From positions 1 through 64,000 of IMG/VR virus record IMGVR_UViG_2816332589_000001: a DNA stretch of 64,000 bases; one strand, given 5' to 3'. Shown here piece after piece: positions 9,038 to 43,478 of the stretch. Numbering within the stretch: the stretch's first letter is position 1; each line of letters opens with the position of its first letter. The notes beneath the pieces are model-generated. The model saw nothing but the letters and a program-made list of their open reading frames with translations. It was not told the origin of the DNA and did no database searches. Made by a program: the position numbers and the translations under genes. The stretch is from a virus. Its lineage: Duplodnaviria; Caudoviricetes.

Positions 9038-9348
9038 GGCCATCAACTTCCGCGCGGGGCCTCCCCGTCACCGCGCGGGAGGACGCGGAGGCGGTTCCGC
9101 GTCCCGGGCGCCGCCAACCGCGGCCCCCGCCCTGTCCGAGGCTCCGCCATCTCTCGTCCTGCCCGGCGGTGTCTTCGCACAGGTCCCGTCGTAGCGGGCA
9201 GCAGATGCGCGCTACGACGACGCCGGGGTGCTGGAGGCGTTCCCCCGAGCCCCTCCAGCACCCCACCGGCCGGGCCCGCCCGGCCCGGCACACCGCACTC
9301 GGTGACCGGCCAGCCGGCCGGTCACCGCTTTCCAAGCGAAGGAGACCC

Positions 9349-9861
9349 ATGCACAACGACATTGATCGGAAAAATCCGCCCCCGGTCCGCGTCGGCTGCC
9401 AGAGCCTGGTGCGCCTGGAGAGCGGGGACGTCCTGGTCGTACGCCCCACCTACGGTGACCGCCGCTACCAACTGCCCGGCGGGCATCGCCACGACGGTGA
9501 ACGGATCAAGGCGGCCGGCGACCGCGAGCTGTACGAGGAGACCGGGCTGACGCTCCCGCGCGGAAACCTGCTGGTCGTCGACGAGATCGACGCCAAGCCC
9601 GACGTCCGTGCCGCCGGCATCAACTTCGTGTACGACTACGGCGTCTGCAACGACCCCGACTCGATCCGGCTGCCCGCCCCGCCCGGCACCGGCGAGGCAC
9701 CCGAGCTGGATCGCTACCTGTGGCTCGCGGAAGACCTCCTCGATGAGCACTGCGCCGACTACATGGCCAAGCGCATCCACTGGTCGCTGTACGCCTTGGC
9801 GGAGAACACCACCGTATCGCTGGTCCGCGGGGAGCTGGCCGATCCGGAAAGGCAGCGCTGA
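9349..9861 (+). CDS. Nudix hydrolase
   Basis: Intact box GGHRHDGERIKAAGDRELYEETGL; RBS AAGGAG. Confidence 0.9.
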   Translation: MHNDIDRKNPPPVRVGCQSLVRLESGDVLVVRPTYGDRRYQLPGGHRHDGERIKAAGDRELYEETGLTLPRGNLLVVDEIDAKPDVRAAGINFVYDYGVCNDPDSIRLPAPPGTGEAPELDRYLWLAEDLLDEHCADYMAKRIHWSLYALAENTTVSLVRGELADPERQR

Positions 9862-15766: not shown

Positions 15767-18193
15767 ATGGCACGCCGCCGCTGGCTGCCCGCCCTCCGTT
15801 CACTGACCACCACCCGCCGCGCAACGGAGGAAAAGACGATCACGTGGACCGGGGGCTACACCTCCACCACGTACGCGGGCACCTCAAACATCTGGTCAAC
15901 CGAGGGCCGCGCCGACGGCTGGGACATCGGACGCGTCGTCACCGAGGGCTACGAGCGGGTCGTCTGGGTCTACAAGGCCATCGACACCATGGGCAAGCAC
16001 GCCTCCCGGCTGCCCCTGGAGATCGGTGTCGGCCTGACCGAGAACGGCGAGTTCGAGGAGGTCATCGAGGACCACCCCCTCCTACGCGTCCTCAACGGCC
16101 GCGCCAACCCGGTCGAGACCGGGCCCCAGTTCCGCAAGCGGCTGTCCGCGCAGATCCTCCTCAGCAAAAGGGGCGCGTTCGTGGAGGTCACCCGCTCAAA
16201 CCGCGGCACCATCACCCGCCTCGATCTCCTGCCCCCGGACCGGGTCATCCCCGTGCCCGACCCGCACGGCGAGTACGTCGCGCACTTCGAGTTCACGACC
16301 ATGCACGGCGAAGTGCGTGAGCTCGACCCCGAGCGGGTCCGCTGGATCAGAGACCCCCACCCGACCGATCCGTTCTCCGGCGTCACCCCGCTGGAGGCCG
16401 CGGGCATCAGCGTCGAACTGGACCACCTGAGCCGCCTGTACAACGTCAGTTTCATCAAGAACGACGCGCGCCCCGGCGGCATCGTCGCCGTGGACACCTC
16501 TTCGCTGAACGAACGCGAGATGGACCGGCTGGAGTCGCGGTTCCTGCCCGGCAGCGAGTTCGCCGGCCATGTGTCCGTCATTGGCTCTGGCGACATGAAG
16601 TACGTGGACTTGGCCGCCCGCCCCCGGGAGATGGCGTACGAGCACGCCGCAACGAACGCCAAGATCGAGATCCTGGGCGCCTTCGGCGTGCCCGAGTCCG
16701 TGACCGGCAACGCGTCCGGCCGGACCTTCGACAACGCCGAGCAAGAGGAATACGGGTTCTGGATTCACACCGAGCTGCCGCACCTGGAGCTGATCAGCAA
16801 CGCCTTCGCCTCCGACCTCGGCGGTCTCGACCGTGCGATCCGCTTCGACACCTCCACCGTCGAAGCCCTGGAACTGCCGCGCCGTAAGCGTCGCACCGAG
16901 GCCCGCGAGGAATGGAACGCCGGGCTGATCAGCGCCGACGAATACCGGCGCCGCGCCGGGCTGCCTGCCTTCGACAATCCTCACACCCGAGCCCTGTGGA
17001 TCAGCCCGCAGAAGGCGCCCGTCCCGGCCCGGCCCGAGGACGCCGCCGCGCTCGGCATCCAGGGGGCCGCAGGCCCCGGTGCGCCGGGCGGGCAGCTCCC
17101 GCCCGTGCCGCCGCCTGGTGCCGACCCCAACGCCCCGATCCCCGAGGCGGACACGGTCGGCGGAGACGCCGCGGCCGTCGTGGCGCAGGCCCGGACGGAA
17201 GGCGGCCAGCCGGCCGGGCCCGGCGCCGCCGCGGCGGCAGTCGCCGACGCGCGCACCACCAAGGAGACCGGCGGACCGGGCGCTGCTGCCGCAGCCGTCA
17301 CGGCCGCGCGTGAGGAAGACGAGGAGACCGGCCCCGGCGAGGCGGCAGAGGCCGTGGCCGAGGCCCGCGGCCTCCAGGTGAAGGCCCTGCCCGCCGGTAC
17401 AAGCGACACCTTCGAGGTCACCGACAACGACTTCGACCAGGCACAACAGGCCGTGTCCACCGCGCTCGCGCCGATCTTCGACCGGGAAGAGGGCGTGATC
17501 ATCGCCCGCCTGCGGTCCCCGAAGACCCGCAAGGGCACCCCGTTCTGGAAGGACGACGGCCCCACCGACACCCGCGGCGGAACCGGCACGCTCGACACGG
17601 ACCGCATCGTCGGAACAGACCGGTGGTTGGAGGAGATCGACGCCACACTCGCCCGGGTCCTGGCCGGCGTCGCGCGCACCGCAGCGCACCGCACGGCCGC
17701 GGCGTTCGGTGCTTCCGAGCCGCCCGCCCGCGCCTCCGGGCCCACGGCAGCCGCCGTACTCGATGCGGTGGCCGCCGCCGAGGAGGTTGCCCGCGGCTTC
17801 CTCGCGTCCCTGGCCATGCTCCTCGACCAGGCGCAGGCCGTCACCACCGACGTGGACGACCTGGTCGCGCTCGTGCGCAGCACGTTCACCGACCTCGGCG
17901 CCCAGGCCGCCGCGAACATCGCCGAGGCCACCGCGGTTGCCACCGTCAACGGCGCCACCGAGGCGACCGCCGCAGCGATCGGCCCCGGCATCGTGCGCAC
18001 CTGGACCACCCGGCGTGACGACCACGTGCGGGCCGTACACGCCGCCGTGGAAGGCGTCACCCTGCCCGTCGGCCAACCGTACGACGTGGACGGCTTCCCC
18101 ATGCGCTTCCCCGGCGACCAACTCGCCCCCATCCACCTGACCGTCAACTGCCGCTGCCGACTGCGCTACACAACTGAAGGAGACACGCCGTGA
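15767..18193 (+). CDS. Phage portal protein fused to a Mu gpF-like minor head domain
   Basis: HK97-like portal motifs (HPLLRVLN..NP, G.TPLEAA, NDARPGG, I.GAFGVP); C-terminal WTTRRDDHVRAVH...NCRC. Confidence 0.9.
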   Translation: MARRRWLPALRSLTTTRRATEEKTITWTGGYTSTTYAGTSNIWSTEGRADGWDIGRVVTEGYERVVWVYKAIDTMGKHASRLPLEIGVGLTENGEFEEVIEDHPLLRVLNGRANPVETGPQFRKRLSAQILLSKRGAFVEVTRSNRGTITRLDLLPPDRVIPVPDPHGEYVAHFEFTTMHGEVRELDPERVRWIRDPHPTDPFSGVTPLEAAGISVELDHLSRLYNVSFIKNDARPGGIVAVDTSSLNEREMDRLESRFLPGSEFAGHVSVIGSGDMKYVDLAARPREMAYEHAATNAKIEILGAFGVPESVTGNASGRTFDNAEQEEYGFWIHTELPHLELISNAFASDLGGLDRAIRFDTSTVEALELPRRKRRTEAREEWNAGLISADEYRRRAGLPAFDNPHTRALWISPQKAPVPARPEDAAALGIQGAAGPGAPGGQLPPVPPPGADPNAPIPEADTVGGDAAAVVAQARTEGGQPAGPGAAAAAVADARTTKETGGPGAAAAAVTAAREEDEETGPGEAAEAVAEARGLQVKALPAGTSDTFEVTDNDFDQAQQAVSTALAPIFDREEGVIIARLRSPKTRKGTPFWKDDGPTDTRGGTGTLDTDRIVGTDRWLEEIDATLARVLAGVARTAAHRTAAAFGASEPPARASGPTAAAVLDAVAAAEEVARGFLASLAMLLDQAQAVTTDVDDLVALVRSTFTDLGAQAAANIAEATAVATVNGATEATAAAIGPGIVRTWTTRRDDHVRAVHAAVEGVTLPVGQPYDVDGFPMRFPGDQLAPIHLTVNCRCRLRYTTEGDTP

Positions 18194-36267: not shown

Positions 36268-36516
36268 TCACACCGTGATCGTGAACACCCATAGGTGAGC
36301 GTCGGGGCCGGAGATGATCACGTAATGGATGATCGCGCTGCGTGTCGTGACGACGCGCACCGACTCGTCCATCTCGTACTTGTCGGCCTGCGGCCACGAC
36401 CACGGGTCACCACAGGCTTGCAGCACCGCAGTGTGCAGTTCTTCTCGCGCGGGCGCCGGTAGATCGCGGATCGTCTGGCCGACGTTGGCCGCGAACCGGG
36501 CGGGGATCGCGCTCAC
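36268..36516 (-). CDS. Putative RelE/ParE-like type II toxin
   Basis: 82 aa, GTGA-coupled to upstream RHH gene, helix-helix-DP then beta strands. Confidence 0.6.
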   Translation of the reverse strand: MSAIPARFAANVGQTIRDLPAPAREELHTAVLQACGDPWSWPQADKYEMDESVRVVTTRSAIIHYVIISGPDAHLWVFTITV

Positions 36517-36755
36517 CGACCGAAGACCTCCGCCATGGACATTGCGCCGTCTTCCGGACGCCCCTCGTTGTTCCACCGGCGGTACGCGAAGCTCGCCAGC
36601 ACCGCGGCCCGGTCCGCGCGGTCAGTGCCCTTCATCGCCTGCGCGGCGGCGAGCACCGATGCCACGTACTCATTCACCGCCAGCCCATGCTGCGCGGCGG
36701 ACTCAGCGACCTGTTCCGCCAGCCGCTCATCTATCGACACCGTCAGCTCCGTCAT
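36513..36755 (-). CDS. Putative RHH/CopG-type antitoxin
   Basis: ELTVSIDERLAEQV...A...GLAVNEYV; C-terminal MSMAEVFG. Confidence 0.65.
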   Translation of the reverse strand: MTELTVSIDERLAEQVAESAAQHGLAVNEYVASVLAAAQAMKGTDRADRAAVLASFAYRRWNNEGRPEDGAMSMAEVFGR

Positions 36756-36805
36756 ACGTCGAGAGTAGCGACCGGAGCCGGGCGGTGGCAGGGGAACGAG
36801 CCCGA

Positions 36806-36832
36806 GACGCTAACCCTCTTGGCCCGGACTCT
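36806..36832 (+). promoter_or_regulatory. Late-promoter motif GACGCTA-N14-GACTCT
   Basis: Conserved copy; GTG 36840 7 nt downstream. Confidence 0.65.
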
Positions 36833-36839
36833 GCGGCCC

Positions 36840-37520
36840 GTGGACTACGCATACGCCGTGAAGACGCTGCCCCAGCCCAACGACGCCCCGGCCGGCGCCG
36901 ACCCGGCCGCGCCTCCGCCGCCGGAACCGCAGCCCCCGCATGAAGATGACGCCCGCCCGTGGGCTGGTGACTTGTACGACGAGGGAGACGAGAGCGACCC
37001 CGCCGAGGCGTACGCCTCCTTCTCCGGGCAGAACGGCGAGCAAGCCTGGCTCGACAAGGCCGAGGACGGCACACTCACCGGCTGGGTGCGCGACGAGACA
37101 GGACAGGTGTGGCGCTACGCGGACGCTGACGCCTGGGCCATCGACGTGGACGACGCCGGCATGGCGCAGACCGGCGGCACTGCGAACGGCGCGGCGCCCG
37201 AGGACCCGGCCGCCGACCCGAGTACGGCGGACCCCGCTGCCCAGACCTCAGCCGCAGGCGACCCGGCCGCCGCGCCACTCGACTTCGCGACCGCCGACGA
37301 CGTCGCCGACCCCGCGGAGGGCGAGGAAGATCCGGCGCTGCCCGGCGAGAAACAGCGAGAAGGCGACCCCTCCATCACCGGCGAGGAAGAGGAACCGGCC
37401 AGCGACGAGGAGCCCGCTGAGGACGAGGAAGAAGACCCTGCTCAGGGCGGCAAGAAGGACCCCTCCAAGAACAAGAAGGGCGCTCCCAAGGGCAAGAAGG
37501 GCGGCAAACCGTGGGCCTGA
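36840..37520 (+). CDS. Acidic hypothetical head-associated protein with Lys-rich C-terminus
   Basis: High GC3; upstream of the protease; ends KKGGKPWA. Confidence 0.7.
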   Translation: MDYAYAVKTLPQPNDAPAGADPAAPPPPEPQPPHEDDARPWAGDLYDEGDESDPAEAYASFSGQNGEQAWLDKAEDGTLTGWVRDETGQVWRYADADAWAIDVDDAGMAQTGGTANGAAPEDPAADPSTADPAAQTSAAGDPAAAPLDFATADDVADPAEGEEDPALPGEKQREGDPSITGEEEEPASDEEPAEDEEEDPAQGGKKDPSKNKKGAPKGKKGGKPWA

Positions 37521-37541: not shown

Positions 37542-37569
37542 GACGTTAGCCCCCCGGCGAGGGCACGGT
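37542..37569 (+). promoter_or_regulatory. Late-promoter motif GACGTTA-N15-CACGGT
   Basis: Conserved copy upstream of the protease. Confidence 0.65.
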
Positions 37570-37606: not shown

Positions 37607-39862
37607 GTGCCCCGCACCCCGCCGCCCAGCCCACCGGCCCGCCGCAGCCCCACCGGCAAGGGCATAGCCCGCGCCATCTACGCCGTGACGGGTGTGGTGG
37701 ACGAGGTCAACGATCTCATCGTGCCGGGGGCCTTCGCCCGCACCCTCGCCACCCGCCGCGTGAAGACGGTCTGGCATCACGACTGGAAAGACCCGGTCGG
37801 CACGGTGCTGGACGTAGAGGAGTGGAAGCCGGGCGACCCCCGTTTCGCGACCATCCCCGGCGGCAGCATGTGGCCGGCCGCCGCCGGGGCGCTCGTCGCG
37901 ACAGTCCAGTACAACCTGCGCACGATCCGCGGCCGGGACGCCTACGAGCAGGTAGACCAGTGGCACAAGAACAACGAGGCCGCGTTCAGCATCGGATACA
38001 AGGTCGTCCCCGGCGGCGCGGCCAAGCGGCACGACGGCGTCAGGGTCATCCACGACCTGGAGCTGTACGAGATCAGCCCGGTACTGCACGGCGCCCACCC
38101 CATGACGCGCAGCATCGAGGTCAAGGCCGCCGCCCGTACAGGCGACGACGATCTGGAACGCAAAGCGACGTGGTCAACGGTCGAACTGAAGGCAGCGGAG
38201 ACGCAGACCGGCCGCGGTGTGATGGTGGCGCTGCGTCTCCCGCCCGACGTGGCCGCGAAGATCGCGCATCCTGAGGGCACGCCGGCGGAACACCTGCACA
38301 TCACGCTCGCCTACCTCGGTGACGCCGCCGCGCTCAGCGAAATCCCTGACGATCTGCACGGCATCGTCGCTCCCTCCGTCGCCGGCACGGCACCGCTGAA
38401 GGGCACCATCGGCGGCATCGGGCGCTTTCCCGACACCGGCGACGGCGAACCCACCTGGGTTCCCGTGGACGTGCCGGGCCTGGCAGAACTGCGGCAACGC
38501 GTCGTGGAAGCCCTGGGCGCCTCCGCGTACGCCGACAAGCTGAACACGCAGCACGGATACACCCCGCACGTCACCCTCGGCTACGCGCTGCCCGAGGTCG
38601 CGCCGGTCCCGGCCACCCCCGTCACCTTCGACCAGGTCGCTATCGTGCGCGGGGCGGACACCTCCTTCGTCCCTCTCGGCCAGCCCGCAGCCCCGGCCCC
38701 CTCCGCAGAGGAGCCGGCCGACGACACTGCTGCTCCCTCGGCCGCCGTCCCCCCGGCCGAGGTGAAGTCAGCCGCGCAGATCGTGCTGGAGGCCAAGGGC
38801 GCCGGCCCCGACGCCCACCGCGGCGACGCCGAACAACTCCGCAAGTGGTACGCCCACGGTGAGGGCGCGGCCCGCATCGGCTGGGGTGCGCGCGGCGACT
38901 TCGACCGCTGTGTGGCCATCGCCGCCCAGCACATGAGTCCCGACGACGCCAAGGGCTACTGCAACCTCCGCCACCACGACGCCCTAGGGATCTACCCGGC
39001 CACCCACGCCGCCGCCGAACGGAAGTCAGCCGCACAGGTCGTACTCGAAGCGAAGTCGCACCCGCTCCCGAAAGCAGAGCCCATGTCCCCGATCTCCCCC
39101 ATGCCCCTGTCCTACGAGCAACTCCACGCCCGGATCGCGGAGGCCGCCCGCAACCTACTCACCGAAGACGGTGACGACTGCTACGTGGCTGTCGAGGCGA
39201 CCTACCCCGACCACGTCATCGTCACCCGGTACTCCCCAGGTGACAGCTCCACCTACTCCATCCCCTACACGGCCGCTGGCCGCGACATCGACCTCGGCAC
39301 ACCCAGTCAGGTCGAGCTGACCACCGTGGCGCTGCCCGTCACCGGCGAATCGCACGCCGTGGACGGCGACGAGGAGATCACTGCCCGGTACATGCAGCCC
39401 ACCGCTGCCGCCCTCCAGGACGCCACCGCCCTCATCGAGGTCTCCGACGCGGGCCCGGAACACCTTCAGCATCTGAAGCCGACCATCACCGACCTCCTCA
39501 CCACCCTCGCGAAGAAGGGCCTCCCCATGAGCAAGCAGACCACCGCCCCGTCCGGCTCCTCTTTGGACCTGTGGGACTCCGAGTACGACGTCACCGACGG
39601 CTGGGACGACGACACCGACGACACGGACGCTGCCGAGGACGCCGAAGGTACCGAGGGCGCCGCGACGGAGGACACCAGCACGCCGACGGCCGCCGACGGC
39701 TCCACGGCCGCTGACAGCAACGTCCCGGCGGCCACCCCCGACGACACGGGCCCCGTACCGGCCGCCCAGGAGCCCGACACCGACGATGAGGACGAGGACG
39801 ACGAGCAGGTCCGGCTGAACGCGGACGAGGTCAAAGCCGTGCTCGCTGCGCTATCCCTCTGA
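37607..39862 (+). CDS. HK97-family prohead protease polyprotein with 2H phosphoesterase and further domains
   Basis: D.IVPGAF, VWHHD..PVG, FSIGY, LYEISPVLHGAHP; two HxT motifs (HITLAYLG, PHVTLGY); RBS AGGAGG. Confidence 0.9.
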   Translation: MPRTPPPSPPARRSPTGKGIARAIYAVTGVVDEVNDLIVPGAFARTLATRRVKTVWHHDWKDPVGTVLDVEEWKPGDPRFATIPGGSMWPAAAGALVATVQYNLRTIRGRDAYEQVDQWHKNNEAAFSIGYKVVPGGAAKRHDGVRVIHDLELYEISPVLHGAHPMTRSIEVKAAARTGDDDLERKATWSTVELKAAETQTGRGVMVALRLPPDVAAKIAHPEGTPAEHLHITLAYLGDAAALSEIPDDLHGIVAPSVAGTAPLKGTIGGIGRFPDTGDGEPTWVPVDVPGLAELRQRVVEALGASAYADKLNTQHGYTPHVTLGYALPEVAPVPATPVTFDQVAIVRGADTSFVPLGQPAAPAPSAEEPADDTAAPSAAVPPAEVKSAAQIVLEAKGAGPDAHRGDAEQLRKWYAHGEGAARIGWGARGDFDRCVAIAAQHMSPDDAKGYCNLRHHDALGIYPATHAAAERKSAAQVVLEAKSHPLPKAEPMSPISPMPLSYEQLHARIAEAARNLLTEDGDDCYVAVEATYPDHVIVTRYSPGDSSTYSIPYTAAGRDIDLGTPSQVELTTVALPVTGESHAVDGDEEITARYMQPTAAALQDATALIEVSDAGPEHLQHLKPTITDLLTTLAKKGLPMSKQTTAPSGSSLDLWDSEYDVTDGWDDDTDDTDAAEDAEGTEGAATEDTSTPTAADGSTAADSNVPAATPDDTGPVPAAQEPDTDDEDEDDEQVRLNADEVKAVLAALSL

Positions 39863-40026: not shown

Positions 40027-41340
40027 ATGGCTACCGCCACCAACGACAAGAGCCTCGTTCGGAGCCTGAAGACGCAGCTCGCCGAGAAGAGCGCGGAGGC
40101 CGAGCGGATCGCAGGCACCTTCAAGGAGGAGAACGGCTCCTTCATCGTCTCGACCGAGCAGCGCAACGCGTACGTCAAGGCCGTCAAGGACGCCCAGGAG
40201 ATCAAGGGTCTCCTCGACGCCGCCCAGGGCGCCGACACCCTGAACAGCTACCTGGACGCGCCCGCCGGAACCCCGGCGGCCGGCCAGCATTACGGCGGCA
40301 CGGGCGGCCCGGCCGGAGTCGAGGCGAAGAGCCTCGGTGACCTGTTCGTGGAGTCCGACGCCTACCAGCGCGCCGCGGCCAGCGACTTCAAGGACCGGCC
40401 GTTCATCCGCGCCGAGGTCGAGGGCAAGTCCATCTTCTCGCTGTCCGCCGGCACCCACACCCACCAGGCCCTCGGTGGCGTGCAGGACCTCGGCATCACC
40501 GAGGCCCAGCGCCGCAAGTGGCACATCCGAGATCTGTTCCCGAGCGCCAAGACCAAGAACGCCGTCCTGCTCGGCATCCGCGAGACCGGGTGGGTCAACA
40601 ACGCGGCCCAGGTGCCGGAGCGTCGGGCGGCCGACGGCGTGTCCGCGCCGACCGGCCTCGACACGGACGTGTTCGGCCGGGCGCCCCGCTCGAAGCTGAA
40701 GCTGGAGCCGGTCGCGTTCCCCATCGCGGAGATCGCCCACATGATCGACGGCCACAAGAACATCCTCTCGGACGAGCCGCGGCTGAAGCAGTTCATCAAC
40801 TCGCGGCTCATCGAGGGGATCAAGTTCGCCGAGGACTACGACCTGCTTCACAGCAGCGGCGCCGACGGCACGTCCCTCACGGGCCTGTTCAACACGCCGG
40901 GCGTGCAGACCTACACCGGCGACAAGAAGGACAAGTTCTCCATCCAGATGCGCCGGGCCATGACAAAGGCTCTGCTCGCCGAATACGAGCCGACCGGCGT
41001 CGTTCTCTCCCCGTCGATGTGGGAGCACGTGGAAATCGAGACGGACGATACCGGGGCGTTCCGTGTCGCGCTCCAGGTCGCCGTCGGCGCGGAAAAGCGC
41101 GTCTGGAGGCTGAACGTGGTCGAAACCACGGCGATGCCGGACAACAACTACCTCCTGGGCTCGTTCGGTATGGGCGCGCAGCTCTACGACCGGGAGAACG
41201 TCTCCGTCACCGTCTCCTCGGAGAACAGCGACAACTTCGAGCGGGGCGTCCTGACGTTCCGAGCTGACGAGCGGCTTGCCCTGGAGGTCAGCAGGCCCGA
41301 GTCCTTCGTGATCGGTACGTGGACCGCTCCGGCCGCCTGA
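40027..41340 (+). CDS. Major capsid protein (HK97 fold with N-terminal delta domain)
   Basis: Coiled-coil N-terminus, IRDLF, IAH...ILSD.P.L..FI, FERG..TFRA.ERL...RPESF. Confidence 0.93.
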   Translation: MATATNDKSLVRSLKTQLAEKSAEAERIAGTFKEENGSFIVSTEQRNAYVKAVKDAQEIKGLLDAAQGADTLNSYLDAPAGTPAAGQHYGGTGGPAGVEAKSLGDLFVESDAYQRAAASDFKDRPFIRAEVEGKSIFSLSAGTHTHQALGGVQDLGITEAQRRKWHIRDLFPSAKTKNAVLLGIRETGWVNNAAQVPERRAADGVSAPTGLDTDVFGRAPRSKLKLEPVAFPIAEIAHMIDGHKNILSDEPRLKQFINSRLIEGIKFAEDYDLLHSSGADGTSLTGLFNTPGVQTYTGDKKDKFSIQMRRAMTKALLAEYEPTGVVLSPSMWEHVEIETDDTGAFRVALQVAVGAEKRVWRLNVVETTAMPDNNYLLGSFGMGAQLYDRENVSVTVSSENSDNFERGVLTFRADERLALEVSRPESFVIGTWTAPAA

Positions 41341-41354
41341 TCAGCGCCGCCGGA

Positions 41355-41382
41355 GACGTAACGCGGGGTCGGGCCGTACGGT
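41355..41382 (+). promoter_or_regulatory. Late-promoter motif GACGTAA-N15-TACGGT (overlaps a hairpin)
   Basis: Conserved copy; GCGGGGTCGG...CCGACCCCGC stem overlaps it. Confidence 0.65.
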
Positions 41383-41415
41383 CCGACCCCGCTCCCATGT
41401 ACCGAGAGGACTGCC

Positions 41416-41685
41416 GTGGCAGACACAAACGGGCTGATCGCGGCCCTCACCCAGCTCTCCGACGCGCCACCGGCGCCGCGCGGCCCGCGCTGCACGGTCG
41501 GCGCCATCCTCGATGCGCTCGATGCCGCCACGGCGCAGAAGGTCCGGGACGTGCTCGATACCCGGGACATCAGCGCCACCCAGATCGCCGACACCCTGAC
41601 CGCCAGCGGCCACCGCGTGCAGGCCCCGGCCGTCGCCCGGCACCGGCGGCGCGGCGCGTCCAACGGATGCAGGTGCCCGCGATGA
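41416..41685 (+). CDS. Small HTH-like, putative Zn-binding protein
   Basis: C...ISATQIADTL...VARHRR...CRC; coupled to the phosphoesterase gene. Confidence 0.7.
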   Translation: MADTNGLIAALTQLSDAPPAPRGPRCTVGAILDALDAATAQKVRDVLDTRDISATQIADTLTASGHRVQAPAVARHRRRGASNGCRCPR

Positions 41686-42929
41686 GCCTCGACCAGCACC
41701 TTGACGCTCTCCTCGCCCCGGCGCCGGCGGAGCAGGCTGCGCCGCCGGAGACCGTACGACCCGCCGCTTCCTCCCCGAAGGGCTGGGAGCCGGGTGTGCG
41801 GTACGAGTCCGGCGGCGCGATGCTCGTCACCGCGCCGGCCGCCGACGCTCCGCCGCAGGACGAGAACGGGTGGCGCGCTCGCGTGGAAGAGCTGGGCCTG
41901 GTCGTCCCCGACGGGTTCCGGGTCCGGCTGGTGGAGGCCCGGCACGACCCGGCCGCCTGGCACCGCGACGCCCAGGGCGAGGACGCCGTTACCCGGCCCG
42001 TGTGGCGCTGCCGCTACCTGATCGAGCCGTCCGTCCCCGGGTGGGCGTCCGCCGAAGACCTCAACTCGCTCGTACGCGACGTGATGCGGCGGCGCCGCAA
42101 GCCCCGCACTCCGGCCGAGCAGCCAGCGCGGTCCCTCGCCGTGGTGTATGCCGACCCGCAGGCTGGGAAGGTCGGCCGTGACGGCGGCACGCGCGAGCTG
42201 GTGGCCCGGGTCGCCGAGCGGTTCGACAGACTGGAGGATCACCTCCGCGACCTCGGTAAGGTCGGCCGCGCCCCCGATTCCGCGTACTGGCTCGACGCCG
42301 GCGACTGTGTTGAAGGATTCGAGAACGTCGCCGCCCAGGCGTTCACCAACGACTTGACGCTCACGCAGATGATCCGGGTGCACAGGCGGCTGACGTTCGA
42401 GGGCCTGGACCGGCTCGCCACCTCCTTCCCCCGGGTCGTGGCGGCGACGTGCGGCTCGAACCACGCCCGGGTCAGGCGCGGGAAGGACCCCGTCGGCCCG
42501 CCGCAAGACGACTGGGGCATCGAGGTCATGTCCCAGATCGCGGACGCGTACGCGAAGAACGCCGACGCGTACGGACACGTCAGCTTCGTCATGCCGGAGC
42601 CATGGCGCGACACCGTCTCGCTCGACATGTCCGGCACGGTCGTCGGCCTGGCCCACGGCCACCAGTACCCGCGGCCGGAGAAGGCTGCCGACTGGTGGAA
42701 GGGCCAGACCTTCGGCCGCCAGCCCATCGCCGACGCCCAGATCATGGTCAGCGGGCACTTCCATCACTTCCGCGCGCAGCAACTCGGCGCGGGGCGCCTG
42801 TGGGTGCAGGCCCCCACCCTCGACAACGGGTCCGACTATTACGCAATGCGCACCGGCGAGGTCAGCCGTCCCGGCCTGCTCGTCTTCTCCGTCACCGCAG
42901 ACGGCTGGGACGACCTGCGCATCCTGTGA
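41682..42929 (+). CDS. Calcineurin-like (Mre11-like) metallophosphoesterase
   Basis: ADPQ, GDCVE, SNH, AHGH, GHFHH motifs. Confidence 0.85.
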   Translation: MSLDQHLDALLAPAPAEQAAPPETVRPAASSPKGWEPGVRYESGGAMLVTAPAADAPPQDENGWRARVEELGLVVPDGFRVRLVEARHDPAAWHRDAQGEDAVTRPVWRCRYLIEPSVPGWASAEDLNSLVRDVMRRRRKPRTPAEQPARSLAVVYADPQAGKVGRDGGTRELVARVAERFDRLEDHLRDLGKVGRAPDSAYWLDAGDCVEGFENVAAQAFTNDLTLTQMIRVHRRLTFEGLDRLATSFPRVVAATCGSNHARVRRGKDPVGPPQDDWGIEVMSQIADAYAKNADAYGHVSFVMPEPWRDTVSLDMSGTVVGLAHGHQYPRPEKAADWWKGQTFGRQPIADAQIMVSGHFHHFRAQQLGAGRLWVQAPTLDNGSDYYAMRTGEVSRPGLLVFSVTADGWDDLRIL

Positions 42930-42995: not shown

Positions 42996-43478
42996 ATGGG
43001 CCTCTACAACGCGGCCGGCGACCGCATCACCAAGGCCGCCTTCCCTGCCACCGCGGTCACCGACCCGGAGAAGACGATCACCGCCGACGTGTACGCGACG
43101 CGTCCGTACGATGTCGGCACCCGCCCGAGCGACACCCGCGACGGTGTGCCGGAGGGCAGCATCAAGACGCTCCTGTTCAAGGCCGGTGCGGTCGTTCGTC
43201 AGTCGCAGATCGACAAGTTGTTCCCCCCGGCCACCATCGCCTCCGTCAGCCCGGCGACCGGCCCGGCCGCGGGCGGCACCGTGGTCACGATCACCGGCAC
43301 CAACCTCGACGGCGTCGCCGACGTGAAGTTCGGCAGCACCGCGGCAACGAACCTGAAGGTGCTCTCTGCCGGGCGCCTCCAGGTCACCACCCCGGCCGGT
43401 ACGGCGGGCGCCGTCGCGGTCGTCGTCGGCGACGAGGCAGGCGCGGTCACCAAGGCCAACGGCTTCACCTACGCCTGA
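42996..43478 (+). CDS. IPT/TIG Ig-like domain virion protein
   Basis: SVSPATGPAAGGTVVTITGTNL...V.FG...FTY. Confidence 0.85.
   Translation: MGLYNAAGDRITKAAFPATAVTDPEKTITADVYATRPYDVGTRPSDTRDGVPEGSIKTLLFKAGAVVRQSQIDKLFPPATIASVSPATGPAAGGTVVTITGTNLDGVADVKFGSTAATNLKVLSAGRLQVTTPAGTAGAVAVVVGDEAGAVTKANGFTYA

Follow-up and report, generated by a model that had tools for sequence, protein, structure and literature searches.

The DNA analyzed here, called the window below, is the first 64 kb of the 136,928-bp virus record IMGVR_UViG_2816332589_000001. The record is a 137-kb Streptomyces phage (Duplodnaviria; Caudoviricetes) with direct terminal repeats and a completeness rating of 100%, and the G+C content is ~70%. 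A gene ending at position 39,862 encodes a head-maturation polyprotein in which an HK97-type prohead protease is followed by a 2H phosphoesterase domain, a small Cys/His module, an alpha/beta domain, and an acidic tail, with candidate protease sites of the form E-x-K-[ASG] in the linkers between them. We regard this polyprotein architecture as very nearly certain and consider cleavage at the sites, predicted from sequence comparison, to be likely. With somewhat more confidence than doubt, we favor the reading that the polyprotein would process itself during head maturation and deliver the 2H domain as cargo. A first-pass annotation of the same DNA had proposed a protease polyprotein whose passengers are delimited by E-x-K sites, and the conservation of these sites, along with their having the same form as the predicted capsid propeptide boundary, bears that proposal out at the level of sequence.

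The reading frame opens at a GTG at position 37568, which gives a product of 764 amino acids (aa) (P0001), and residue numbering throughout follows this frame. In the database, the gene (P0002, 751 aa) is called from 37607, the same start as in the first-pass annotation, and its product corresponds to residues 15 to 764 of the 764-aa frame behind a methionine at residue 14. The protease domain matches the Peptidase_S78 model (PF04586) with an E value of 1.2e-10 and 42.2 bits against a cut-off of 21 (47.3 bits with the domain alone), and it scores 43 bits against TIGR01543, short of the equivalog cut-off of 59. A BLASTP comparison with HK97 gp4 (E = 4e-8) aligns H71 with gp4 H65, and S141, in FSIGY, corresponds by motif to gp4 S114 in MSVGF; we take H65 and S114 to be the catalytic residues of gp4. 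Whole-protein searches found 288 homologues at E ≤1e-3, and the polyprotein counts given here come from a MAFFT alignment of the query with the best 120 of the 288, nearly all of them from Streptomyces, or 121 sequences in total. H71 is kept in 120 and S141 in all 121. The score above the family cut-off and the positions of these two residues place the domain, by sequence, in peptidase family S78.

Eight E-x-K-[ASG] motifs are present in the polyprotein (K186, K199, K208, K400, K410, K486, K496, and K756). All seven motifs listed in the first-pass annotation were found, and the eighth, DEVK↓A at K756 near the C terminus, is added here (arrows mark the predicted scissile bond). In 20,000 shuffles of the sequence the mean was 0.44 motifs, and eight were never attained. 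Across the alignment, the motif occurs at these columns, in site order from K186 to K756, in 107, 75, 53, 62, 94, 87, 106, and 112 of the 121 sequences. Nearly all motifs in the 121 homologues (705 of 710) lie within the linkers (residues 181-215, 376-414, and 481-515) or the tail (746-764); the folded cores and other regions hold only 5, compared to ~20 expected from composition, while linker 1 holds 235, compared to 13.8 expected. HK97 gp4 itself carries a Lys-Ser pair (AAMK↓SVDG) just past its protease core, roughly at the place of K186↓A.

Sites of this kind also mark the capsid protein. Its E-x-K↓[SG] sites at K60, K101, and K134 are kept in 104, 111, and 121 of 121 homologues, respectively, and GVEAK101↓SLGDLF matches TFNK103↓SLGSD of HK97 gp5, presumably the bond cut by the HK97 protease, in both position and sequence. 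We predict from this match that K101↓SLGDLF is the capsid propeptide boundary. The corresponding boundary reads IEEK↓SLGDLF in Gilgamesh, the closest named phage, and MEAK↓SLGEAF in the distant Brevibacterium phage Cantare. Motifs were also counted over the whole 136,928-bp genome in 88 open reading frames (ORFs; 33,193 aa) selected by G+C content at third codon positions (GC3). Eleven of the 17 motifs found fall in the polyprotein and the capsid protein, where 0.9 would be expected from composition. The remaining 86 ORFs hold 6 motifs versus ~15.7 expected, with 2 versus 4.1 in a giant protein of 5,641 aa, and this depletion may reflect avoidance of the protease site.

The first passenger is a 2H domain with intact catalytic motifs. 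The Pfam model 2_5_RNA_ligase2 (PF13563) matches residues 234 to 343 (E = 1.4e-13), and the strings HITLAYLG (at ~38297) and PHVTLGY, read in the first-pass annotation as the marks of a 2H domain, are both present, with the codons for H244 and H334 beginning at 38297 and 38567. The HxT residues are well kept among the 121 sequences (H244 in 116, T246 in 115, H334 in 116, and T336 in 114), and the homologues without them are NUDIX variants, described below. An AlphaFold2 model of the domain, built from a 37-sequence alignment that included short homologues, has a mean predicted local distance difference test (pLDDT) score of 91.4 and a predicted template modeling (pTM) score of 0.83. Foldseek returned 23 PDB matches to this model at E ≤1e-3, all of them 2H-type proteins. 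The two HxT motifs and the duplicated alpha+beta fold make the domain a member of the 2H superfamily.

Within that superfamily, the domain lies nearest LigT. The top Foldseek matches were 5h7e (E = 3.5e-8, template modeling [TM] score 0.61), 1iuh (6.6e-8), and Escherichia coli LigT (5ldm, 9.9e-8); Acb1 (7t27) came only eighth (E = 4.3e-5, TM 0.44/0.57), behind seven LigT-type chains, and rotavirus- and coronavirus-type 2',5'-phosphodiesterases and a Burkholderia phage phosphodiesterase scored similarly. A PDB sequence search found LigT-type enzymes only (5h7e, E = 1.7e-4; 1iuh, 2.5e-4; 1vdx, 0.38), with no Acb1 chain up to E ≤10, and the Pfam Acb1 model PF23474 did not match the polyprotein at E ≤0.1. 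Weak matches to that model, below its cut-off, were seen in 1 of 63 related 2H proteins and in Cantare gp9. The sole NCBIfam match for the domain is the ThpR equivalog TIGR02258, at 29.2 bits compared to a cut-off of 65.7, and identity to LigT/ThpR enzymes is 17 to 21%. By sequence and model, then, this is a LigT-clade 2H enzyme that falls outside the Acb1 family and is not orthologous to ThpR. Assignment to the Acb1 family was rejected because PF23474 was silent, no Acb1 was found by sequence, and LigT-type structures ranked higher. The "Acb1-like fold" of the first-pass annotation thus survives as a shared superfamily fold but not as the closest likeness, and the alternative that it had offered, a LigT-type RNA 2',3'-cyclic phosphodiesterase, describes the fold better.

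Comparison of the homologues indicates that the passenger slot is exchangeable. A 2H domain alone occupies it in 114 of the 120 listed homologues, a NUDIX domain replaces the 2H domain in 5, and one 901-aa protein (P0121) has both, in the order protease, K180, 2H, K371, NUDIX, K557. In five of the six NUDIX carriers, the NUDIX domain is flanked by the same sites. Gilgamesh gp52 likewise combines an S78 protease with a NUDIX domain (residues 210 to 326), and it lacks the Cys/His module. On these sequences, the slot is one in which 2H and NUDIX domains substitute for each other.

Related 2H domains keep similar company in other phages. A search with the 2H domain found 3,373 cluster representatives at E ≤1e-3; 145 of the 150 listed were new, and 63 of these, of at least 420 aa and taken in score order, were scanned for domains. 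S78 was present in 38, S78_2 in 2, Mu-like_Pro in 1, portal in 5, MuF in 1, and NUDIX in 4, from which we conclude that this 2H clade resides mainly within head-morphogenesis proteins. In the Arthrobacter phage Edmundo, a 2H domain precedes an XkdF-type protease. Cantare has the three parts split over distinct genes within a single head module, with the 2H domain in gp9, the Cys/His module in gp12, and the protease in gp13. Cantare gp12 (L002, 4869-6179) has its Cys/His region (residues 45 to 141) fused to a LysM peptidoglycan-binding domain (204 to 249), and PG_binding_1 was found in 3 of the 63 scanned proteins; these fusions hint that some head-module proteins act at the cell wall. Many protease and capsid homologues lie on contigs of ~120 to 138 kb in Streptomyces assemblies, a few of them labeled as plasmids, and Gilgamesh-like phages may persist as extrachromosomal elements (phage-plasmids).

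The remaining modules lie downstream of the 2H domain. The Cys/His domain recorded in the first-pass annotation is present, with a match to phrog_6439 over residues 418 to 486 (E = 5.7e-19), and 15 stand-alone homologues of 76 to 148 aa were found for it. Its motif occurs in 47 of the 121 homologues, which marks the module, by sequence, as an optional cassette. For the C-terminal half (residues 396 to 764; model pLDDT 71.4), there was no PDB match at E ≤1e-3, and a BFVD search gave one match at E ≤1e-3, to an uncharacterized protein, with "prohead protease" matches weaker (E ≥1.4e-3). Pfam searches with residues 396 to 500 and 497 to 764 returned nothing even at E ≤10. In the ESM Atlas, the C-terminal domain resembled the C-terminal parts of prohead proteases at TM scores of 0.44 to 0.49, which are below the bar for naming a family and serve as leads only; the domain is probably assembly- or scaffold-like. 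The acidic tail, also recorded earlier, is as acidic as described (30 Asp/Glu and no Lys/Arg in 89 residues), and pLDDT is below 50 over residues 681 to 744. The extreme C terminus has a predicted helix at residues 752 to 763 that is, by analogy, a candidate capsid-targeting peptide.

Taken together, the reading that we favor would run as follows. The C-terminal part would take the whole polypeptide into the procapsid, by analogy with other prohead proteases, which are targeted by their C-terminal segments, HK97 gp4 included. Portions of PMC7411985 describe the SPN3US protease as having a C-terminal propeptide for which a targeting role has been proposed. Because the passengers lie between the protease and the C-terminal tail, they would enter the procapsid along with the protease. 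The protease would then cut after the Lys of (hydrophobic)-E-x-K↓(S, A, or G), the motif also found at the capsid propeptide boundary. The calculated products are a protease of 19.0 kDa, a 2H domain of 19.4 kDa, a Cys/His module of 8.2 kDa, and a C-terminal part of 27.4 kDa, plus short peptides, and we infer that folded domains this large should not escape through the capsid pores. The folded 2H enzyme would be kept in the head and ejected with the DNA into the next host, in the manner of the T4 internal proteins; as described in parts of PMC7411985, T4 IPI-III and Alt are targeted by an N-terminal peptide, lose it to gp21, and enter the cell. Copies of the 2H enzyme made late in infection would also be active in the producing cell. 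Its substrate would be a cyclic or 2',3'-cyclic phosphodiester, either in host nucleotide immune signals or at RNA ends left by host ribonucleases. Retention in the head and delivery seem to us a close call, with slightly more doubt than confidence, and a role against nucleotide immune signals is a tentative suggestion that we consider doubtful.

Several observations weigh against this reading. In HK97, the protease degrades itself and its fragments exit the head, and the passengers here could be lost or degraded in the same way. C-terminal targeting is argued by analogy, and packaging and processing are deduced here from sequence. The Glu at P3 is not common to HK97, whose site is FNK↓S. In the diverse set of 145 2H-domain proteins, an upstream motif no more than 45 aa from the domain was seen in only 21 of 106, and a downstream one no more than 60 aa away was seen in only 37 of 112 (3.3% and 3.7%, respectively, in shuffles), so the site grammar is lineage-specific rather than general. 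The nearest solved relatives of the 2H domain are RNA 2',3'-cyclic phosphodiesterases, not Acb1, and the fold does not fix the substrate. Neither the protease nor the 2H domain is, by its TIGR01543 or TIGR02258 score, a close orthologue of its model enzyme.

A first alternative is that the enzyme heals RNA ends, whether delivered or not. A LigT/ThpR-type 2',3'-cyclic phosphodiesterase would act on ends produced by host anticodon nucleases or toxin RNases, host ligases would reseal them, and the NUDIX domain would act on RNA 5' ends. The nearest structures and sequences, which are RNA 2',3'-cyclic phosphodiesterases and LigT, speak for this possibility, as does the fact that TIGR02258 is the only NCBIfam match; furthermore, a role at RNA ends can be read into 2H and NUDIX alike, and P0121 has both domains. 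The TIGR02258 score, on the other hand, is far under the equivalog cut-off. RtcB and a PF09414 RNA ligase were looked for across the 136.9-kb genome, and neither was found; their absence weakens the case for a dedicated phage RNA-repair pathway, which we set aside on that ground, and only one tRNA gene is present in the genome. Passages of Iyer et al. (2017; PMC5512222) also note that linkage to RNA ligases is never seen for the 2H versions in polyvalent proteins. Overall, we consider RNA healing to be unlikely, although it keeps some plausibility.

A second alternative is that the 2H enzyme acts only in the producing cell, late in infection, with the fusion serving to co-express it with the head genes and the passenger being cut off and then lost or degraded after assembly. 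In one version, the enzyme would remove cyclic-oligonucleotide alarm signals provoked by the protease itself. The gene does lie in a late structural block that runs from portal to capsid, and the departure of HK97 protease fragments from the head would fit. Parts of a recent preprint also report that prohead proteases activate the CD-NTases of the cyclic oligonucleotide-based antiphage signaling system (CBASS) by cutting a loop (Hobbs and Kranzusch 2026; bioRxiv 10.64898/2026.03.04.709575), so that a prohead protease can be a CBASS trigger. Yet the sites spare every folded core, as would be expected if intact domains were the product, and the passenger, lying between the protease and the conserved tail, would in any case travel into the procapsid. 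In other phages, moreover, these modules are joined to portal and MuF proteins. We judge action confined to the producing cell to be unlikely.

It is conceivable that the protease carries its own antidote: a CBASS trigger would be welded to an enzyme that degrades the alarm nucleotide, so that each copy of the trigger would bring one copy of the enzyme along. The enzyme would act toward the end of infection in the producing cell and again, as cargo packaged in the head, at the next entry. The 2H domain (for cyclic oligonucleotides) and the NUDIX domain (for ADP-ribose-type or pyrophosphate-linked signals) would then be swapped to fit the signaling chemistry of the host. This idea is speculative, and we assign it little probability. 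As for the view that the E-x-K repeats are relics of linker duplication in an uncut protease-scaffold with the 2H domain as a mere spacer, the direct repeat KSAAQ[IV]VLEAK does flank the Cys/His module in the pattern expected from insertion with target duplication, but we consider this view highly improbable, given that the motif is held at its eight positions in 53 to 112 of 121 homologues while neighboring residues vary, is found also at the capsid propeptide boundary and at the N terminus of the giant protein in two phages, and is depleted elsewhere in the genome (6 versus ~15.7 expected), and that the HxT catalytic residues are conserved.

If self-processing and delivery of the cargo are correct, HK97-type prohead proteases would be self-unloading carriers: a domain placed between the protease and the C-terminal tail, with E-x-K↓S on either side, would enter the head and then be released in folded form. 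This would provide a simple rule for finding virion-delivered effectors, one that flags the 5,641-aa giant protein via RLEAK↓A, and phage capsids could be loaded with cargo by the same natural plan. A further gain would be a testable case in which counter-defense enzymes, whether 2H or NUDIX, are on hand as infection begins. The cultured relative Gilgamesh, on Streptomyces lividans, provides an experimental system.

The coordinates of the polyprotein features and of the principal neighboring genes are collected in Table 1. The giant ORF has an Eco57I-like methylase signature at about residues 877 to 960 and an SNF2/ResIII helicase at about residues 1544 to 1818, with Helicase_C, a make-up that we would liken to that of DarB, which we take to be a capsid-packaged anti-restriction protein of phage P1. 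In Gilgamesh gp48, HLEVK26↓A stands ahead of the same conserved sequence that follows RLEAK23↓A here, which suggests that the polyprotein's protease may remove the N terminus of the giant protein as a propeptide and that the giant protein may therefore be packaged. This N terminus looks like the short propeptides of T4 internal proteins described in portions of PMC7411985.

The gene order is common to Gilgamesh, with its giant gp48, gp52 "hydrolase," and capsid gp53. The ~400-aa C-terminal extension of the portal protein had no Pfam match; the Gilgamesh portal homologue is annotated as a "portal and MuF-like fusion protein." A few small ORFs separate the giant ORF from the polyprotein gene. 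Two overlapping minus-strand ORFs of 102 and 80 aa (36268-36755) lie amid the plus-strand block, and an acidic 277-aa ORF with a Lys-rich C terminus (36687-37520, plus strand) lies directly 5' of the protease gene; these putative genes had no family match and failed the GC3 filter. On the 3' side of the capsid gene, an ORF at 41319-42929 (plus strand) occupies the position of the Gilgamesh gp55 "metallophosphoesterase." This ORF had no Pfam or NCBIfam match, and Gilgamesh gp55 likewise had no Pfam match. It is followed by a 160-aa ORF (42996-43478, plus strand) with an IPT/TIG (Ig-like) domain (E = 6.9e-16). Upstream of the portal gene is a stand-alone NUDIX gene (9169-9861, plus strand; PF00293, E = 3.8e-8), and the corresponding region of Gilgamesh has a "MutT-like" gene.

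Table 1. Positions in the window of the polyprotein features and of neighboring head genes
Feature	Position (nt)	Strand	Remarks
Portal protein	15767..18193	+	Phage_portal residues 68-397; ~400-aa C-terminal extension
Giant ORF, 5,641 aa	18470..35395	+	Between portal and protease gene
Giant protein, N-terminal 23 residues	18470..18538	+	End in RLEAK23↓A; candidate propeptide
Head-maturation polyprotein gene	37568/37607..39862	+	Late structural block; portal upstream, capsid gene downstream
HK97-family (S78) prohead serine protease domain	37658..38125	+	Residues ~31-186; Pfam PF04586, TIGR01543
Candidate catalytic residues	His71, 37778-37780; Ser141, 37988-37990	+	From HK97 gp4 comparison
Linker 1	38114..38191	+	Candidate sites IEVK186↓A, LERK199↓A, VELK208↓A
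2H phosphoesterase domain, LigT clade	38213..38692	+	Residues ~216-375; Pfam PF13563, AlphaFold2, Foldseek, PDB sequence search
HxT motif 1, H244-I-T246	38297-38305	+	
HxT motif 2, H334-V-T336	38567-38575	+	
Linker 2, Ala/Pro-rich	38693..38797	+	Candidate sites AEVK400↓S, LEAK410↓G; low pLDDT; first KSAAQ[IV]VLEAK copy
Small helical Cys/His module	38798..39025	+	Residues 411-486; C448, C465
Linker 3	39014..39055	+	Candidate sites AERK486↓S, LEAK496↓S; second KSAAQ[IV]VLEAK copy
C-terminal alpha/beta domain	39113..39517	+	Residues ~516-650; pLDDT ~94
Disordered acidic tail	39536..39802	+	Residues 657-745; 30 D/E in 89 residues, no K/R
Conserved C-terminal helix with last candidate site DEVK756↓AVLAALSL	39803..39859	+	Last 19 residues; motif in 112/121 homologues
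Major capsid protein, HK97 fold	40027..41340	+	Pfam PF05065; N-terminal propeptide (predicted)

Parts of this picture are already in print. Homologues are publicly annotated as "2'-5' RNA ligase/phage head maturation protease." Passages of Iyer et al. (2017; PMC5512222) describe polyvalent proteins in which 2H domains fused to MuF or portal are predicted to be RNases or to counter nucleotide signaling, and in which an assemblin-like peptidase is always C-terminal. Sections of a later paper (Iyer et al. 2022; PMC9503650) treat the packaging and injection of 2H fusions as probable and name SMODS, cyclic-mononucleotide, and CRISPR signaling as what they would counter. Between them, the two papers predict that 2H and Nudix domains joined to head proteins travel in the head and are injected. 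The central idea of the first-pass annotation is therefore a rediscovery of a published computational prediction; its polyprotein, its bracketing sites, and its catalytic 2H motifs hold up, and its Acb1-like label does not.

Our literature search found no paper that mentions both a 2H phosphoesterase and a capsid maturation protease. Nor did it find an N-terminal S78 protease with site-bracketed passengers, an architecture that the supplements of Iyer et al. may list, or the substitution of 2H and NUDIX for each other at a single position, with those supplements lying outside the search. The same search turned up no account of the matching N-terminal site of the giant protein, of experiments on these proteins, or of a link between a 2H- or NUDIX-carrying protease and protease-triggered CBASS. 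Papers on Microbacterium and Rhodococcus phage genomics describe RtcB-type and other RNA ligases and no protease-2H fusion, and no paper was found on the phosphodiesterase of Burkholderia phage BCSR5 (PDB 9q2y).

Among known systems, HK97 provides the closest parallel for the protease and its substrate: gp4 is homologous (E = 4e-8) with matching His and Ser residues, its gene, like the one here, is directly upstream of an HK97-fold capsid gene with a propeptide, and the boundary is K↓SLG in both. Unlike the present protein, gp4 has 225 aa and no passengers, while here ~570 more residues and four more modules follow the protease, and Glu stands at P3. Acb1, the anti-CBASS nuclease described in parts of Hobbs et al. 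(2022; PMC9117128), is likewise a phage-encoded 2H fold with two HxT motifs, but it stands alone as a compact protein whose residues 145 to 152 form a C-terminal lid. The LigT/ThpR enzymes (5h7e, 1iuh, and 5ldm) give the best matches by sequence (E = 1.7e-4) and by Foldseek (3.5e-8, TM ~0.6); they differ in that identity is 17 to 21% and in that the 2H domain here is embedded in a virion-assembly polyprotein.

Polyvalent and head-packaged effectors, as presented in sections of Iyer et al. (PMC5512222), share with this protein the joining of unrelated enzyme domains and an embedded peptidase in one polypeptide in a head-gene setting. Their peptidase is C-terminal, whereas the protease here is N-terminal and each passenger is bracketed by a capsid-type site. 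T4 IPI-III and Alt and the SPN3US ejection proteins offer the sequence of events that we propose for this protein, namely prohead targeting, trimming by the protease, retention in the head, and ejection, although portions of PMC7411985 describe them as separate gene products with N-terminal targeting peptides and a T4 gp21-type protease, whereas the cargo here lies within the protease polypeptide. Finally, Gilgamesh gp52 (MN234216.1) agrees with the present protein in gene order, protease, C-terminal domain, and the positions of the sites and differs from it in that NUDIX replaces the 2H domain and the Cys/His module is missing.

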